Assembly (NCBI GenBank): GCA_965246885.1
Contig: OZ251992.1
Location: 384,001 to 448,000 of the forward strand
Direction of reading: 5' to 3'
DNA: 64,000 bases
DNA from: Abditibacterium sp.
GTDB taxonomy: Bacteria > Armatimonadota > Abditibacteriia > Abditibacteriales > Abditibacteriaceae
How positions within the stretch are numbered: the stretch's first letter is position 1; each line of letters starts with the position of its first letter. The position numbers and the translations under genes are program-made. The notes under the pieces were generated by a model. The model did no database searches and was not told where the DNA came from. It saw only the letters and a list, made by a program, of their open reading frames with translations. Shown here in pieces: positions 12,424 to 63,432 of this stretch.

Positions 12424-12521
12424 GTAAAAGCAGACAAGGCCATGCCGCGCGAAACGGGGCACGCCAAAGAAACGCGGCGGAGCGAGAACCGTTCCGAATT
12501 TAGCAGATACTCCACCTGTCG

Positions 12522-12623
12522 GGGGCAGCGCCCATAGGGGCAGCGCCCATAGGGGCAGCGCCCATAGGGGCAGCGCCCATAGGGGCAGCGCCCATAGGGG
12601 CAGCGCCCATAGGGGCAGCGCCC
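12522..12623. repeat. Perfect 15-bp tandem repeat (GGGGCAGCGCCCATA) x 6.8
   Basis: Six identical units plus a 12-nt partial unit, between divergent genes. Confidence 0.97.
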
Positions 12624-12723
12624 GGGAAAATTTATTGCCCGCGCGCCCGCGAAATGCCCCACAAAGGGCGCGCGGCGTGATAAAATGCCGTCAACGGTTT
12701 GCCCAAACCCGTCCCGATTCCTC

Positions 12724-13987: not shown

Positions 13988-14061
13988 AGCCGCCTGCCGG
14001 AATCGAACCGGCGACCTTCTCATTACGAGTGAGACGCTCTACCATCTGAGACTAAGGCGGC
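13988..14061 (-). tRNA. tRNA-Thr (anticodon CGT), CCA not encoded
   Basis: Reverse complement GCCGCCT TA GTCTC AGATGGTA GAGC G TCTCA CTCGTAA TGAGA AGGTC GCCGG TTCGATT CCGGC AGGCGGC T folds as a cloverleaf. Confidence 0.95.
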
Positions 14062-31970: not shown

Positions 31971-32140
31971 AAGAAAGAATTGGGCGCGGCCACTGTTCGC
32001 CGGGTCGCGGCAACGGTCGCCGCAGGCCTGCCGACAAAAGAATCAGCCCGGCGGACGGAAGAATTAAGCGCGCCGCCAAAAGAACTAACCCGGCGGACGG
32101 GAGAATTAACTCTGCGGCGCGAGAATTAAGCGCGCCGACA
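31971..32140. repeat. Degenerate 21-nt periodic intergenic tract (family member 2 of 4)
   Basis: AGAA(T/C) words with the G at 31977, 32040, 32061, 32082, 32103 and 32123; consensus about AAGAATTAAGCGCGCCGNNNN. Confidence 0.8.
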
Positions 32141-32288
32141 GTTCGCCGGGGCAGGCGGATGACTCCGGGAGACCGCGCAACGCTTATTAGGTGTCGCACG
32201 GCAACCGACGCGCGTCCGCCTCGTCTTGACCTACCCGGTTTCTCGCCGGGCCGACTCACCCCCTGCCGTACCCAAGGAGAAACACAAT

Positions 32289-41826: not shown

Positions 41827-41933
41827 AAGCGAATAAATTCGCAGCCAGCAAAGTCGTCGGCCTTCGCCGACGCGTCGCAGTTAACCCCGTCAACGAAGGT
41901 TGACGTTCCGGCTGGCTGCGACTTCATTCGCTT
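41827..41933. mobile_element. Palindromic element family A, copy 1
   Basis: AAGCGAATAAATTCGCAGCCAGC ... GCTGGCTGCGACTTCATTCGCTT (2 mismatches), with internal GGCCTTCGCCGACG and CAACGAAGGTTG words. Confidence 0.85.
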
Positions 41934-42586: not shown

Positions 42587-44515
42587 ATGGCGACAGCACT
42601 CCCCCCTGCGGGCCGCGTTCCCGATTTGCCGCCCGGTTGGGAAGTCGAGCGGCCCGCCCTACTCCGGCGGCGCGCACACGCGCTCATTTTAGGACTCACG
42701 CTTTGCTTTGGCGCGATGGGCGCGAAACTGTATTCTCTGCAAGTGGTGCAGGGCGCTTCGTTCATCGCGCAGGCCAAGCGCAATCGGCTGGCGCATGTTT
42801 CGATTCCCGCGCCGCGCGGCGTCCTGCTCGACTGCAGAGGACAGATTTTGGCAACCACCCAAGCGCTCCATGCGGTCTCGGTCGTTCCGGCGTTGCTGCC
42901 GTCGGCGCGCACGCAAAAAGAGGAGCGCGCGCGCTTGCTCAGGTCGCTGGCGTTTCTGATTCACACGACGCCCGACGCCATCGAAGCCACGCTCACGACG
43001 GCCCGCCAAAAGCGCGGCGCGCGCTACTTCGACCCGATTCAGGTGGCGACCAATTTGGACATGCCCACGATGGCGCGTTTGGTCGAGAACCGCCCGCGCT
43101 TGGATAACGCCATCCTGCTAACGGATGATTTGCGCCGCGTGTATCCCGGCGGCGAACTGGCGGGGCATGTGCTGGGCTTCGCGCAAACGGCCAGCGAGGA
43201 AGACCTTCAGCGCGCCCAAAAGCGCGGGGCGCCGCTTCACCCCGATGACCGCGTCGGCAAGACCGGCTTGGAGCGCTACTACGACCGCGAGTTGCAAGGC
43301 GTGCGAGGAGAGGAGACCTTTGAAGTGGACGCGCAAAGCCGCCCCGTCGCGTTGCGGGGCCGCACCCCCGAACACGCGGGCAACACCTTGCAACTCTCGC
43401 TCGACGCAAAGCTCCAGCGCGCCGCCGAAGGCGCTCTGGCGGCGGCCCGTAACTCTGGGGCGCTGGCGGCCATAGACCCGCGCAACGGCGAGATACTGGC
43501 GCTCGCCTCGCGCCCCGGCTTCAACCCCAACACCTTTTCTTTGACGGGGGCGGGGTTTCAAGCGGCGTATCGGCAACTGCTGCATGACCCCAAGCACCCG
43601 ATGCTCAACCGCGCCGTCACGTCGCGGTTTCCGCCCGGCTCGACGTTTAAGCCCTTCGTGGCATCGGCGGGCTTGGAGCGGGGCGCGGTGTCGCCCTATT
43701 CGACGGTGGATTGCCCCGGCTACTTCGTGATGGGCCGCAAGTTCGGCTGTTGGGCGGTGCACGGCGGCGGGGTGAACCTGTCCGAAGCGCTCGCCAAATC
43801 GTGCGACGTGTATTTCTACCAACTCGGCCTGCGCTTGGGCAATCCCGAATCATCGGGGCCAACGTATTTGGCGCACGTGGCGCGCGGCTTTGGCTTTGGG
43901 CACCGGACGGGGATAGATTTGTCGAGCGACGAGGGCGGGCTGATGCCCGACCCGGCGTGGCGGCGCCGCTTCAATGCGCACCGTCCGGCCTTGCAACGCT
44001 GGTTTCCGGGCAATACGCTCAATATGAGCATCGGGCAAGGCGACGTGTTGGCGACGCCGCTCCAGATGGCGGTGGCAACGGCGGCCATTGCCAACGGCGG
44101 CACGCGTTGGACGCCGCATCTGGTGCGCGAAGTGCGCGACGCAAGCGGGAAACTGCTGCGCCGAGTCAAGCCTCAGGGAGCGGGTGTCGGGATTTCGGCG
44201 CGCAACTTGGCGATCGTGCGCGCCGGGATGCGCGACGTCGTAACGAACGGCACGGGCAAGCCGTGCAACTTGCCGCAGGTGGAGGTCGCGGGCAAGACCG
44301 GCTCGGCGGAGGACGTTCACAACGCGCTTCCGCACTCGTGGTGGATTTGCTACGCGCCCGCCGAGCACCCCACCATCGCCATTGCCGTCGTGGTGGAAAA
44401 CTCCGGGCACGGGTCAGAAAACGCCCTGCCCGTCGCCCGCGCGGTGCTGGACGCCGCCTTTGCGCCAATGCAAGCGAATGAATTCGCAGCCAGCAAGAAC
44501 GTCAACCTTCGTTGA
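42587..44515 (+). CDS. mrdA: Penicillin-binding protein 2 (class B transpeptidase)
   Basis: N-terminal TM, APRG.LLD, GKTGLERYYD, PPGSTFK (SxxK), SCDVYFY, SIGQG, AGKTGSAE. Confidence 0.93.
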   Translation: MATALPPAGRVPDLPPGWEVERPALLRRRAHALILGLTLCFGAMGAKLYSLQVVQGASFIAQAKRNRLAHVSIPAPRGVLLDCRGQILATTQALHAVSVVPALLPSARTQKEERARLLRSLAFLIHTTPDAIEATLTTARQKRGARYFDPIQVATNLDMPTMARLVENRPRLDNAILLTDDLRRVYPGGELAGHVLGFAQTASEEDLQRAQKRGAPLHPDDRVGKTGLERYYDRELQGVRGEETFEVDAQSRPVALRGRTPEHAGNTLQLSLDAKLQRAAEGALAAARNSGALAAIDPRNGEILALASRPGFNPNTFSLTGAGFQAAYRQLLHDPKHPMLNRAVTSRFPPGSTFKPFVASAGLERGAVSPYSTVDCPGYFVMGRKFGCWAVHGGGVNLSEALAKSCDVYFYQLGLRLGNPESSGPTYLAHVARGFGFGHRTGIDLSSDEGGLMPDPAWRRRFNAHRPALQRWFPGNTLNMSIGQGDVLATPLQMAVATAAIANGGTRWTPHLVREVRDASGKLLRRVKPQGAGVGISARNLAIVRAGMRDVVTNGTGKPCNLPQVEVAGKTGSAEDVHNALPHSWWICYAPAEHPTIAIAVVVENSGHGSENALPVARAVLDAAFAPMQANEFAASKNVNLR

Positions 44516-44575
44516 CGCGGTGTCGGCGAAGGCCGACAATCTCGCTGGCTGCGAATTCATTCGCTTGCATTGGCG
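44463..44575. mobile_element. Palindromic element family A, copy 2 (overlaps the 3' ends of two convergent genes)
   Basis: Perfect 32-bp inverted repeat CGCCAATGCAAGCGAATGAATTCGCAGCCAGC at 44463-44494 and 44544-44575. Confidence 0.9.
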
Positions 44576-44811: not shown

Positions 44812-46161
44812 CTATAGGGCGCGTCTCACGACGCGCCCCCCGGCAAGGGCAGGCTCCTTTGCGAACGCCTCAAACGCCGCTTGGCCCCGTTCGACGAACG
44901 CTTCGGCTTTGCCCTCCTTCTTCCACTTGCGCCCATCGGCGCGCGCTTCCAAGGGCGGGAGCAGCGCCCAGTTCGAGTTCATCGGCTGAAAATGCTTGGC
45001 GTCCGCCGTCGTGATGTAGTGCGACAGGCTACCCAGCACCGTCTCGCGCGGGAAGACTTGCGGTTCCTCGCCCCTCACGAGGCGTGCGGCGTTGCGGCCC
45101 GCGATGAGACCCGCCGCTGCGCTTTCCAAATACCCCTCGACGCCGGTGAGTTGCCCCGCGAAGAAGAGGTCGTCGCGGATGTTGCTTTGGAACGTCGGGC
45201 GCAAGACGGAGGGGCTGTTGAGGAAAATGTTCTTGTGAATGACGCCGTATCGGACGATCTCGACGTTCTGGAGGCCGGGGATGAGGCGCAGAACGCGGGT
45301 CTGCTCGCCCCACTTGAGCCGCGTTTGAAAGCCGACGAGGTTGAACATCGTTTGTTCCAAGTTTTCGGCCCGCAGTTGCACGGCGGCGAAGGGCCAGCGC
45401 CCGGTCGTGGGGTCAGTGAGTCCGGCGCCGCGCATCGGGCCAAAGCGCATGGTGAGGCGCCCGCGCGTCGCCATCTCCTCGATGGGCATGCAACTCTCGA
45501 AATAGGGCACGTCCTCATCGTTGTGGGCGTCGGCCTTTTCCGCGCCGAGTAGCGCCTCGCGCAGTTCGTCGTATTTGGCTTCCGACAGGGCGGCGTTCCA
45601 ATACGCGGCGTCGCCCTTGTCGTAGCGAGAAGCGAGGAAGAGGGTGTCGAAGTCGAGCGAATCGGCGTCCACGACGGGCGCGACGGCATCGAAGAAGTTG
45701 AGAAACCCCGCGCCGAGGGTCGCTTGAATCGAAGCCGACAGCGCCTCGCTCGACAGTGGCCCACTCGCCACGATGCAAGGCGTATCGGGGATGGCGGTGA
45801 CTTCCTCGCGGATGATTTCGACGTTCGGGTGGGCTTCGAGGCGCTCTGTCACGCCGCGCGCGAACTTCTCGCGGTCAACGGCGAGCGCGCTCCCGGCAGG
45901 CACGGCGCTCTCGTCGGCGGCGGTCAAGATGAGGGAATCGAGGCGGCGCATCTCCCACTTGAGTAGCCCCGTCGCTTTGTCGAGGGTGTTGGACTTGAGC
46001 GAGTTCGAGCAAACCAACTCCGCCAAGTTGCCGGTCTGGTGGACGGCGGTGCCCTTCGTCGGACGCATTTCAAACAGCCGCACGCGTGCCCCGCCCTGCG
46101 CCGCTTGCCATGCGGCCTCGCACCCCGCGAGTCCGCCGCCGATGATGGAAAAGTCGTTCAT
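44812..46161 (-). CDS. trmFO: FAD/folate-dependent tRNA (uracil-5-)-methyltransferase TrmFO
   Basis: IIGGGLAGCEAAWQ, LAELVCSNSL, VPAGSALAVDR, FFDAVAP, NLVGFQTRLKWGEQ, FAGQLTGVEGYLESAA, FQPMN. Confidence 0.96.
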   Translation of the reverse strand: MNDFSIIGGGLAGCEAAWQAAQGGARVRLFEMRPTKGTAVHQTGNLAELVCSNSLKSNTLDKATGLLKWEMRRLDSLILTAADESAVPAGSALAVDREKFARGVTERLEAHPNVEIIREEVTAIPDTPCIVASGPLSSEALSASIQATLGAGFLNFFDAVAPVVDADSLDFDTLFLASRYDKGDAAYWNAALSEAKYDELREALLGAEKADAHNDEDVPYFESCMPIEEMATRGRLTMRFGPMRGAGLTDPTTGRWPFAAVQLRAENLEQTMFNLVGFQTRLKWGEQTRVLRLIPGLQNVEIVRYGVIHKNIFLNSPSVLRPTFQSNIRDDLFFAGQLTGVEGYLESAAAGLIAGRNAARLVRGEEPQVFPRETVLGSLSHYITTADAKHFQPMNSNWALLPPLEARADGRKWKKEGKAEAFVERGQAAFEAFAKEPALAGGRVVRRAL

Positions 46162-46167
46162 TGCGGT

Positions 46168-47601
46168 TTAGTTTGAGGCGGTGCCCATGTCGTCGCGGCA
46201 CGTGCGGGCGGCGGCTTTGGCGTCCTCCAATGTCGCCACTTCCCCGCTCAGTTGCAAGAAGTAAACGCGCTCGCAAACCTTCCCGAACACCGGGCCGGGT
46301 TTCCAGCCCATTTCGAGAAGGTGTCGGCCTTGGAGAAGCGGGGCGGGCGGGCCGAACTCGACCCCGGCGGCACGTAGTCCGGTCTCGAACCAACTCGCGG
46401 CCTCGTCGAAGCCGCGCGCACGGGCGAGTTTGAGGGCCAGTTGCGGTGGCACGCGCGCGGCGAAAAAGCGGAACTCTTTGGCTTCGACGGGGGCGCGGCG
46501 GAACCAGTCGGGCGCGACCTTGCGGGCGCCGACGAGCTTGATAACAAGGGCGCGCACGTCTACGGCGTCGCCGCGCCCTTTCAGGCGGTGGATGCCGAGG
46601 TCGTCGAGCAGACGTTTGGTATCGCGCCAGCCCAAGAAGGAGCCAAGGGTAGCGAGCGTAAGGGCGATGGATTCGGGGAAATCGAGGGCGCGGGCTTCGA
46701 TGGCGGCGCGGTCGAGGGCAGCAGGGATGGTCGAGCGAATGAATTCGCAGCCAGCGAGGTCGTCGGCCTTCGCCGACGCAGGGGCAGTCACCCCGTCGGC
46801 GAAGGCCGACGACCTCGCTGGCTGCGAATTCATTCGCTCGCCCTCGCGCTCTAACGCCCGTTCTAAGGAGGGAAACAGCCGCGCGAAAACGCCGGTCTCG
46901 CGGCCCGCCCGCAAACCAATGGAGGGGCGGGCGGCGCGGAGGAGCCACTTTTCCCATTCGCCCCACACGCGCTCGCGGGGCAGGTCGTCCAAGGGGGTGG
47001 CGCGGCACAGCGCGGCGGTGGCGGGGTCAATCGTCAGATCAAAGCGGGCGGCAAATTGCACGGCGCGTAGGACGCGCAGCGAATCTTCGCCGAAATGCCG
47101 CTCATCTACGGCACGGAGCAGGCGGGCCTCCAAGTCGCGGCGCCCGTTGAAGGGGTCTACGATGTCGCCCGTTAACGGGTCGCAGAGGATGGCGTTGAGC
47201 GTGAAGTCGCGGCGGCGGGCGGCGTCTTCGATGCTGGCAAAGGGGTCGCCCTCGACCTCGAAACCCTTGTGGCCCGTCCCGGTTTTGCGGTCGCGGCGAG
47301 GAAGCGACACGTCCAACTCGAAGCGTTCGCGCTTGCCGCTCGCGTTACGGGCGTGCCAGACGAGCTTGAGGACGCGGAAACTCTCGCCAACCGCGTCCAC
47401 GCGACCGAGCGTTTTCAACACGGCGCGCAGCTGTTCGGCGGGCAGGCCGTAAACCTCGATATCGGCGTCTTTGGGGGCAAGGCCAAGCAAGGCATCGCGC
47501 ACGAAACCGCCCACTAACAAGGCGCGTCCGCCGAGCGGTTGGACGGCGCGCGCGAGTTGGCGGGTCTTGTCGAGGAGGGGCGAGGTGGGAAGAGGAAGCA
47601 T
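46168..47601 (-). CDS. cca: Class II tRNA nucleotidyltransferase (CCA-adding family) carrying an in-frame palindromic insertion
   Basis: LVGGFVRDALLG..PKDADIEV, RRDFTLNA, DPFNG..DL, FGEDSLRVLRAVQFAARF, ERVWGEWEK, PLLQGRHLL..GWKPGP.FG. Exact specificity (CCA, CC or A adding) cannot be determined here. Confidence 0.88.
   Translation of the reverse strand: MLPLPTSPLLDKTRQLARAVQPLGGRALLVGGFVRDALLGLAPKDADIEVYGLPAEQLRAVLKTLGRVDAVGESFRVLKLVWHARNASGKRERFELDVSLPRRDRKTGTGHKGFEVEGDPFASIEDAARRRDFTLNAILCDPLTGDIVDPFNGRRDLEARLLRAVDERHFGEDSLRVLRAVQFAARFDLTIDPATAALCRATPLDDLPRERVWGEWEKWLLRAARPSIGLRAGRETGVFARLFPSLERALEREGERMNSQPARSSAFADGVTAPASAKADDLAGCEFIRSTIPAALDRAAIEARALDFPESIALTLATLGSFLGWRDTKRLLDDLGIHRLKGRGDAVDVRALVIKLVGARKVAPDWFRRAPVEAKEFRFFAARVPPQLALKLARARGFDEAASWFETGLRAAGVEFGPPAPLLQGRHLLEMGWKPGPVFGKVCERVYFLQLSGEVATLEDAKAAARTCRDDMGTASN
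46732..46840. mobile_element. Palindromic element family A, copy 3 (inside the cca coding sequence)
   Basis: Perfect 47-bp inverted repeat (46732-46778 and 46794-46840) with a 15-nt loop. Confidence 0.93.
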
Positions 47602-48788: not shown

Positions 48789-48893
48789 GCCAGCGAATGA
48801 ATTCGCAGCCAGCAGAAGCGTCGACCTTCGTTGACGCGATGCTTCCGTCGGCGAAGGCCGACGTTTTCGCTGGCTGCGAATTCATTCGCTGGC
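48789..48893. mobile_element. Palindromic element family A, copy 4
   Basis: Perfect 25-bp inverted repeat GCCAGCGAATGAATTCGCAGCCAGC starting 2 nt after the glycosyltransferase stop. Confidence 0.9.
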
Positions 48894-50977: not shown

Positions 50978-51101
50978 TGCCCAGCGACTCAAGTCGCGGG
51001 CAACCTACGGCAAAGCCTCCCTTCGGAGGCTACGCGCCTGCACACTCAGTCGGCGCAGGCCGACTTTGCCGTAGGTTGCCCGCGACTTGAGTCGCTGGGC
51101 A
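50978..51101. mobile_element. REP/MITE-like palindromic element (family C)
   Basis: Perfect 38-bp inverted repeat TGCCCAGCGACTCAAGTCGCGGGCAACCTACGGCAAAG (50978-51015 and 51064-51101); each arm holds a GCGACT-CA-AGTCGC hairpin. Confidence 0.85.
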
Positions 51102-62111: not shown

Positions 62112-62250
62112 TCTGAATTATGCGGGCGACGCGCTGACAGACCTCTGTCGTCGCGTCGCCCATGCGTGCCGATGGAAGAATTAGCCGCGCCACCCAAAGA
62201 ATTAAGCGCGCCGATGGAAGAATTAAGCGCGCCAGCGCGTCGCCCATGTC
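62112..62250. repeat. Degenerate 21-nt periodic intergenic tract (family member 4 of 4)
   Basis: GAATTA at 62115, 62178, 62199 and 62220 (spacing 63, 21, 21); AAGAATTAAGCGCGCC is shared with 32059. Confidence 0.8.
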
Positions 62251-63229: not shown

Positions 63230-63283
63230 CCCACAGAGGCGCTACTTCCAGCGCCCTCGCGGGCAACCGGAGAAGCCGCGCTC

Positions 63284-63400
63284 TGTCATTCCGAGGGGAG
63301 CCTTGGCGACGGGAGGAATCTACTTTCGCCCTCTGCTCGGTGGCAAACAGGCCGCGGGGATTAGATTCCTCCCGTCGCCAAGGCTCCCCTCGGAATGACA
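63284..63400. mobile_element. REP/MITE-like palindromic element (family D)
   Basis: Perfect 39-bp inverted repeat TGTCATTCCGAGGGGAGCCTTGGCGACGGGAGGAATCTA (63284-63322 and 63362-63400). Confidence 0.88.
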
Positions 63401-63432
63401 AATTGCGACTCTGTAAGGTATCTTTTACTGAG

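Follow-up and report, generated by a model that had tools for sequence, protein, structure and literature searches.

A mostly intergenic hairpin doublet found in frame in the cca gene of an Abditibacterium genome

Results

The cca locus and its insert

The locus comprises cca (46168..47601, minus strand), which encodes a putative class II tRNA nucleotidyltransferase of 477 aa with matches to PF01743 and PF12627, and trmFO (44812..46161), which lies 6 nt downstream on the same strand and is likely transcribed together with cca. All coordinates are those of the window, the whole 64,000-nt stretch of DNA that was analyzed, unless a contig or locus is named. The window belongs to a genome of 3.56 Mb in two contigs (92.7% complete). 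A scan for promoters and terminators returned matches at chance level only, and a lookup of public runs listed no RNA datasets containing cca.

A perfect 47-bp inverted repeat with a 15-nt loop occupies positions 46732-46840 within cca, as had been described in an earlier reading made without database searches (hereafter, the sequence-only reading). The left arm (46732..46778, plus strand) contains hairpin 1 (46735-46748) and hairpin 2 (46761-46778), a two-hairpin unit that also flanks Y1 transposase genes in relatives. It is followed by a spacer of 15 nt that varies among copies (46779..46793) and then by the right arm (46794..46840, minus strand), the perfect reverse complement of the left. 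The minus-strand frame of cca remains open across the repeat, and the peptide quoted in the sequence-only reading follows directly after LFPSLERALERE. RNA folding of positions 46720-46852 gave -118.7 kcal/mol (z = -15.5), and none of 200 shuffled sequences was as stable. A perfect 47-bp stem in an mRNA could slow ribosomes or attract RNase III.

An alignment with orthologues, proposed earlier as a check, gave a clean gap: the span from P244 to D297 holds 54 residues in the cca product and 19 in all 94 aligned homologues, an excess of 35 aa. The alignment took in 94 of the 119 listed homologues; P0003 and P0011, among those left out, are also empty at this site, and none of the 119 has a repeat insert there. 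Matches of the tblastn type in relatives likewise break near residue 257 and restart near residue 292. The inserted core, a REPIN-like doublet with ends that match those of family copies, measures 105 nt (46734..46838) and encodes, on the minus strand, residues 258-292 of the enzyme; the in-frame peptide claimed earlier is real, and its size of 109 nt and 36 aa was a slight overestimate. The site minus its insert would read Gly-Ala-Thr-Ile, where orthologues have Gly-Ala/Asp-Glu-Ile. There would thus be no space for a target duplication at this one site. The outer CG pairs of the 47-bp repeat are likely target sequence.

Just downstream of the insertion site, P0003 and P0011 (locus L002) carry an unrelated internal tandem duplication of 31 aa, which is a second sign that the region tolerates extra sequence.

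The host enzyme

The catalytic motifs of class II CCA-adding enzymes are intact in the cca product, namely GGxVRD/DxD (31-47), RRDF (130-133), EDxxR (172-176), and ER (210-211), which we take to be the motifs named by the letters A-E, and they are invariant across the product and its homologues. The structure predicted by AlphaFold (mean pLDDT 92.7) has the fold of a CCA-adding enzyme, and the top Foldseek matches were enzymes of this kind. The model shares the head, neck, body, and tail arrangement, together with the catalytic motifs, of the class II enzymes from Thermotoga maritima (3h37/3h3a) and Bacillus stearothermophilus (1miv). All NCBIfam equivalog models scored below their cut-offs on this protein.

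Profile searches of the genome returned one match each for PF01743 and PF12627, both of them cca, and no match for the archaeal-type PF09249; an intact cca elsewhere, which the sequence-only reading had named as a refuting case, was thus looked for and not found with these profiles. Exactly one PF01743 match was present in 23 of 25 other genomes of the family (one genome had none and one had two fragments), and the single gene of these relatives is the orthologue of cca. The tRNA-Thr(CGT) gene of the window (13988..14061, minus strand) lacks an encoded CCA, as had been noted, and CCA follows the discriminator base in none of the 50 ARAGORN tRNA calls for the whole genome, a set that includes some false calls (two "tRNA-Stop," "SeC," and one Val resemble repeat hairpins). 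According to the accessible part of PMC10673834, tRNA genes without CCA make the CCA-adding enzyme essential. Since cca encodes the sole class II enzyme found and none of the tRNA calls encodes CCA, its product would be a CCA-adding enzyme, and, judged from sequence, cca is very likely an essential, single-copy, and working gene, in line with the earlier suggestion of a probably important enzyme.

Of 173 conserved columns, the cca product retains 171, an ordinary value for the set, in which it ranks 57 of 95 when counted from the bottom. In relative-rate tests with two outgroups, it had accumulated fewer changes specific to its lineage than had three relatives, in all six comparisons; its branch was long in one tree (0.22 vs a median of 0.14), and no acceleration appeared in the relative-rate tests. 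A pseudogene reading of cca was therefore unsupported. Column conservation and rate tests are blind to selection after the insertion, because a very recent insertion leaves no rate signal.

Both junctions of the element are crossed, without differences, by contigs of two public runs, and no listed joint skips the element. Together with one X2 contig that covers the unique loop, the orthology of the relatives' single PF01743 gene, and the intactness of every catalytic motif, these contigs make it scarcely credible that cca is dead or the hairpin an assembly artefact, with CCA added by a gene absent from the assembly. Such an explanation would draw on the 92.7% completeness of the assembly and on the fact that none of the contig pieces listed covers the element from end to end, both runs being from one study that is possibly the source of the assembly.

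The HD site and the landing place

The sequence-only reading had remarked that the HD motifs of the enzyme look degenerate. This is correct for the cca product and is common to its close relatives: neither H.EG[DS] nor HD[LIVF]GK occurs in any of 119 close homologues, and both are also absent from the cca product and the 10 closest metagenome loci. Among distant loci, H.EG[DS] was found in 65 of 70 and both motifs in 60 of 70, and in HD-bearing relatives a longer loop, containing HxEGD, stands where cca carries its insert. The cca product thus lacks the intact HD phosphatase motifs of a multifunctional CCA/HD repair enzyme; the HD phosphatase is described in the accessible part of PMC10673834 as a separable repair activity.

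Because the motifs are missing in all 119 close homologues, the HD site was lost family-wide first, with the element landing later in the freed loop. The insert as a cause of HD loss, a link implied by the sequence-only reading, is ruled out by the same insert-free homologues, none of which keeps the motifs. We infer that HD loss made the site permissive. The cca product differs from other class II CCA-adding enzymes in this combination, coming from an HD-bearing lineage in which the HD site is deleted family-wide and carrying a 35-aa repeat-derived loop in its place. Across the homologues P0002-P0120, the tRNA-end repair site has been lost in the whole family, in its only CCA-adding enzyme.

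In the AlphaFold model, the insert lies in a predicted loop joining helices 244-259 and 292-303, with a pLDDT of 63-65; low values are expected for columns without alignment depth and are not proof of disorder. Structure prediction, another check proposed earlier, is consistent with a permissive site, which is a helix-to-helix loop inside the vestigial HD/body region and not the domain junction that had been supposed. The insert is likely a flexible loop that the enzyme tolerates.

The repeat family

The insert consists of DNA of a repeat family with 59 loci in the genome (blastn), so the peptide is repeat-derived, as had been claimed. Fifty-five loci are longer than 60 nt, and 53 of these are doublets of 89-119 nt. 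Placed on our own gene model of 2,998 genes, 30 of the 55 long copies lie between co-directional genes, 16 between convergent genes, and 7 between divergent genes, leaving 2 inside called genes. Of the 46 intergenic copies outside divergent pairs, 42 overlap or stand no more than 30 nt from a 3' end. In this genome-wide count, the copy in cca was the only internal in-frame copy (1/55 long copies).

Four other candidates for in-frame copies were rejected. The second apparent one (C1:1479577) is upstream of where phosphomannomutase truly starts, C1:3245065 likewise lies upstream of the start of its gene, C1:175895 is a weak 44-nt match that is likely due to chance, and L233 (genome G006) is intergenic.

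The three further copies noted earlier in the window belong to the family. One is intergenic, just past the apaG stop (41828..41932); one overlaps the 3' end of mrdA (PBP2), whose stop and final 13 or so codons it provides (44473..44565); and one is intergenic, 6 nt after a glycosyltransferase stop (48792..48890). They are related and not near-identical, with 81% identity for the one full-length ungapped pair. About ten other copies in the genome overlap the last 9 nt of a gene and supply its stop, and three doublets stand in tandem in a BIME-like cluster (G000:C1:1049838-1050141).

Related DNA was detected in 12/12 genomes of the same genus, 3/12 other genomes of the family, and 0/16 more distant genomes searched. 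Named close homologues of the cca product come from Abditibacteriota, including Abditibacterium utsteinense, which very likely places the genome in Abditibacteriaceae, and the lineage is not Rickettsia, as had been proposed. An "RPE-like family" that habitually enters proteins, also proposed, does not agree with the counts: one of 55 long copies is internal, none of 41 copies tested in relatives has coding-like sequence on both sides (by a model trained on our own genome), and no NCBIfam model corresponds. Family copies usually have two of their three phases open, and 27 of the 53 full ones have a length divisible by three; special design is therefore not required for a copy to land in frame.

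Each arm of the family consists of two small hairpins. The GTAG/GTGG guide is absent from the arm consensus, and only 23 of 96 stretches of arm plus flank contain the 4-mer at any position. Direct repeats of 2, 3, 4, and 5 nt were found at the ends of 5, 0, 3, and 0 of 48 copies, so that a few 4-nt repeats exist. A classical MITE of the DDE type was rejected on the lack of target-site duplication (0/48 at both 3 and 5 nt) and on termini that are not TA. Complementarity of 6 nt or more between the flanks outside the core was found in 10 of 48 copies vs 0.3% of cross-paired controls, which suggests that the family inserts into, or is copied across, existing palindromes. Rfam contained no match to the element.

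Searches with the insert peptide were negative within their scope. Four open translations matched no NCBIfam model at E values up to 10. A 25-row profile, built from one open phase of the two, had 16 matches among 1.84 billion cluster representatives, 13 of them shorter than 90 aa, and none of the 6 inspected was a recognizable enzyme with an internal insert; this search is a weak one, as insert-bearing variants sit behind 50% representatives and the cca product itself was absent from the results.

The arms of the cca element are perfect, the sequence occurs in one study only, and all 119 homologues lack a repeat insert at the site, as would be expected of a very recent, mildly harmful insertion that impairs the enzyme or lowers cca-trmFO expression through its hairpin and persists by drift in one population. 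An RPE insert altered the substrate affinity of Rickettsia guanylate kinase, according to the accessible part of PMC2229807. Arm symmetry cannot date the insertion, however, because identical 42-nt arms are common in the family (15/53 copies). No identical donor is left in the genome, where the closest other copy has 91% identity, and neither run lists an empty allele (contigs drop rare variants). We consider this account rather unlikely, yet a serious contender to a near-neutral loop.

Candidate transposases

Family arms lie on both sides of three of 46 Y1 loci, in a REPtron-like layout: L188 (967-1542) and L189 (668-1472) in G004, and L190 (758-1505) in G009, both genomes of the same genus. 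The 46 loci tested (5 from our own genome and 41 from relatives) are a subset of all those listed. The three are distinct low-copy genes that form one clade (support 100/100), and they group apart in the tree from L036, a true RAYT of our own genome. The L188 protein scored 54.8 with NF033573 (IS200; cut-off 55) and 21.8 with NF047646 (RAYT; cut-off 80), which counts against a textbook RAYT. The motif Y---Q--HH is present in L188, L189, L190, and L032. It is the signature of TnpA-Y1 subclass 1.2, for which the accessible text of the defining paper (bioRxiv 10.1101/279083 = PMC6006769) gives no repeats or role. An IS200-like transposase linked to repeats has a precedent in Group 3 of IS200, which is RAYT-like and which accessible passages of PMC5581495 connect with abundant flanking 16-mers without duplication.

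Mobilization of the family by an L188-type transposase is likely, on the evidence of this arrangement. No gene of the cognate clade was found in our own genome (best match 43%; assembly 92.7% complete), so the mobilizer of the cca element would be lost, missing from the assembly, or a cross-acting relative. That gap is also what would be expected if the repeat spread without any Y1 transposase, by recombination, template switching, or another enzyme, the copies next to tnpA being ordinary intergenic insertions; the flank complementarity given above (10/48 vs 0.3%) points to a hairpin-driven copying or repair step of this kind. We hold this to be improbable, given that arms bracket three related tnpA genes in two genomes and that other Y1 genes of our own genome (L032, L034, and L036) are each flanked by their own repeat families, as in REPtrons.

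L032 is flanked by a sister repeat, and a doublet of this sister family stands in the window at 50978-51101, with an identical first hairpin and a longer linker.

Other hairpin families

A genome-wide scan for long hairpins returned 248 of them, belonging to several families. Copies of a second family, the one that flanks L036 (the true RAYT), are found in frame in queA (L128, G000:C1:190575), polX (L130, G000:C1:837475), and hsdM (L129, G000:C1:528070). The queA insert amounts to 34 extra residues vs three of four relatives, the fourth having extra residues of its own there; the polX insert amounts to about 17 residues vs relatives, and the hsdM insert to about 19 vs one orthologue. Seven candidates from families other than that of cca were compared in all: these three had clear gaps, two were ambiguous against relatives (a PD-(D/E)XK protein and a glycosyltransferase), one, an alpha-amylase linker, was rejected for having no gap, and one was without a usable orthologue. 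The last is an in-frame copy in a PAP2/PMT membrane protein gene (L134, G000:C1:1994576-1994702), for which five genomes held no usable orthologue; it belongs to another long hairpin family of about 12 loci that is also seen in the window at 63274-63410.

The window further contains a member of a small hairpin family with about eight loci in the genome (6341-6415), a 15-bp tandem array (12507-12626), and two related tandem arrays with a 21-bp period (32023-32147 and 62140-62247).

Two of the four clear in-frame cases in the genome are tRNA enzymes (cca and queA), and tRNA-related targets are listed in the accessible part of PMC3733652. Such a pattern might be taken to mean that the insert was co-opted, its RNA hairpin tuning cca-trmFO expression or its peptide forming a new contact surface, and REP hairpins are described elsewhere as affecting mRNA stability and translation (bioRxiv 10.1101/279083, in part). 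But a share of two in four carries no statistical weight, and the insert occurs in a single genome, resembles every intergenic copy, and offers no testable synonymous-only drift from the family pattern. Co-option is very unlikely on these grounds, and a tolerated, near-neutral loop is preferred.

Discussion

The comparison with known systems places the cca repeat closest to REPINs and REP doublets as these are described in the accessible text of Bertels and Rainey 2011 (PMC3116915). Both consist of two inverted palindromic units with a variable spacer that form a long hairpin, both are dispersed and almost all extragenic near 3' ends (53/55 between genes here), and both flank single-copy HUH/Y1 transposase genes (here L188, L189, and L190, which are not in our own genome). 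The cca family differs in lacking the GTAG/GTGG guide at the hairpin foot, in having two hairpins in each arm, in numbering tens of copies vs hundreds for REPINs, and in being linked to an IS200-like transposase with Y---Q--HH that NCBIfam models do not class as a RAYT.

Intragenic GTAG/CGTC REPs and TIR repeats offer a second parallel. The accessible portion of PMC3733652 places a minority of them in the reading frame of conserved genes, tRNA enzymes among these, puts the gain from a dimer at 20-30 residues or more, catalogues REP dimers within repair and tRNA genes, and notes that stop codons often come from the repeat ends; the TIRtrons of the same source are tyrosine transposases flanked by non-REP palindromes. 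The cca repeat differs from all of these as a new sequence family in a new phylum, and four supplementary files of that paper held no entries for cca, nucleotidyltransferase, or queuosine.

Rickettsia palindromic elements, the model chosen in the sequence-only reading, are alike in being hairpins of about 105-150 nt in frame in conserved housekeeping enzymes (PMC10969869 and PMC2229807, as far as their accessible text goes). The cca repeat has no sequence match to them, a candidate transposase is visible for it, and 1/55 of its long copies is internal, whereas nearly half of the RPEs are intragenic in R. conorii. No RPE model of NCBIfam matched the cca product; TIGR01045 found nothing in the genome, and this model was also silent in 14/14 controls.

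The transposases resemble TnpA-Y1 subclass 1.2 (PMC6006769) and IS200 Group 3 (PMC5581495), which are described in the accessible parts of these papers as low-copy and IS200-related, and the likeness of L188-type proteins to subclass 1.2 rests on Y---Q--HH (also found in L032) together with low copy number. In contrast to subclass 1.2, whose members that text describes as generally without the end structures of IS200 and as coming for the most part from Cyanobacteria and Bacteroidetes, several genes here are bracketed by dispersed hairpin doublets. A literature search on TnpA subclass 1.2 and IS200 returned only the defining paper, and one on palindromic repeats in Abditibacteriota returned none, with most subscription journals outside the search.

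We think it quite probable that the 105-nt core is a copy of a mostly intergenic hairpin doublet, likely moved by an IS200-like Y1 (HUH) transposase, that came to lie in frame in cca and likely forms a near-neutral loop on a working CCA-adding enzyme. The transposase would recognize the two-hairpin arm in single-stranded DNA, and the doublet would be pasted into a short palindrome-like site, at its middle and with no duplication of the target. Most coding insertions would then be purged. The copy in cca may have escaped this fate through a length divisible by three, a phase free of stops, and a position in a loop that would have been without a role since the HD phosphatase was lost. Given that CCA is encoded by none of the tRNA genes and that the search for a second CCA-adding gene was negative, cca is presumably translated and its enzyme active.

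A wider hypothesis is offered more tentatively, as an open proposition that we would not yet call probable. Subclass-1.2-type IS200-like Y1 transposases may mobilize guide-less REPIN-like doublets in Abditibacteriota, pasting them into short palindromic sites with the target left unduplicated, and may, together with the true RAYT family, feed peptide loops into cca, queA, polX, and hsdM. The cca copy would mark the exact ends of the element, and loss of the HD phosphatase would have opened its landing site.

In-frame insertion of selfish repeat DNA into genes is already known from Rickettsia and from many REP-bearing species, and the present case is not surprising in kind. It is an unusually clean one, in which protein sequence derived from a repeat is part of an enzyme that is very likely indispensable to the cell. 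Orthologous empty sites fix the net length of the insert, the earlier loss of the HD site offers an explanation for its tolerance, and the clean empty sites make a comparison of the enzyme with and without the insert simple. An intergenic, Y1-linked hairpin doublet that rarely hits coding sequence, and here did so where an essential enzyme has a permissive loop, explains the cca insert well. The pairing of the repeat with subclass-1.2-type transposases is a more promising lead than the cca insert itself. A repeat that brackets IS200-like Y---Q--HH transposases, and not RAYTs, offers a substrate for a subclass without an assigned role.
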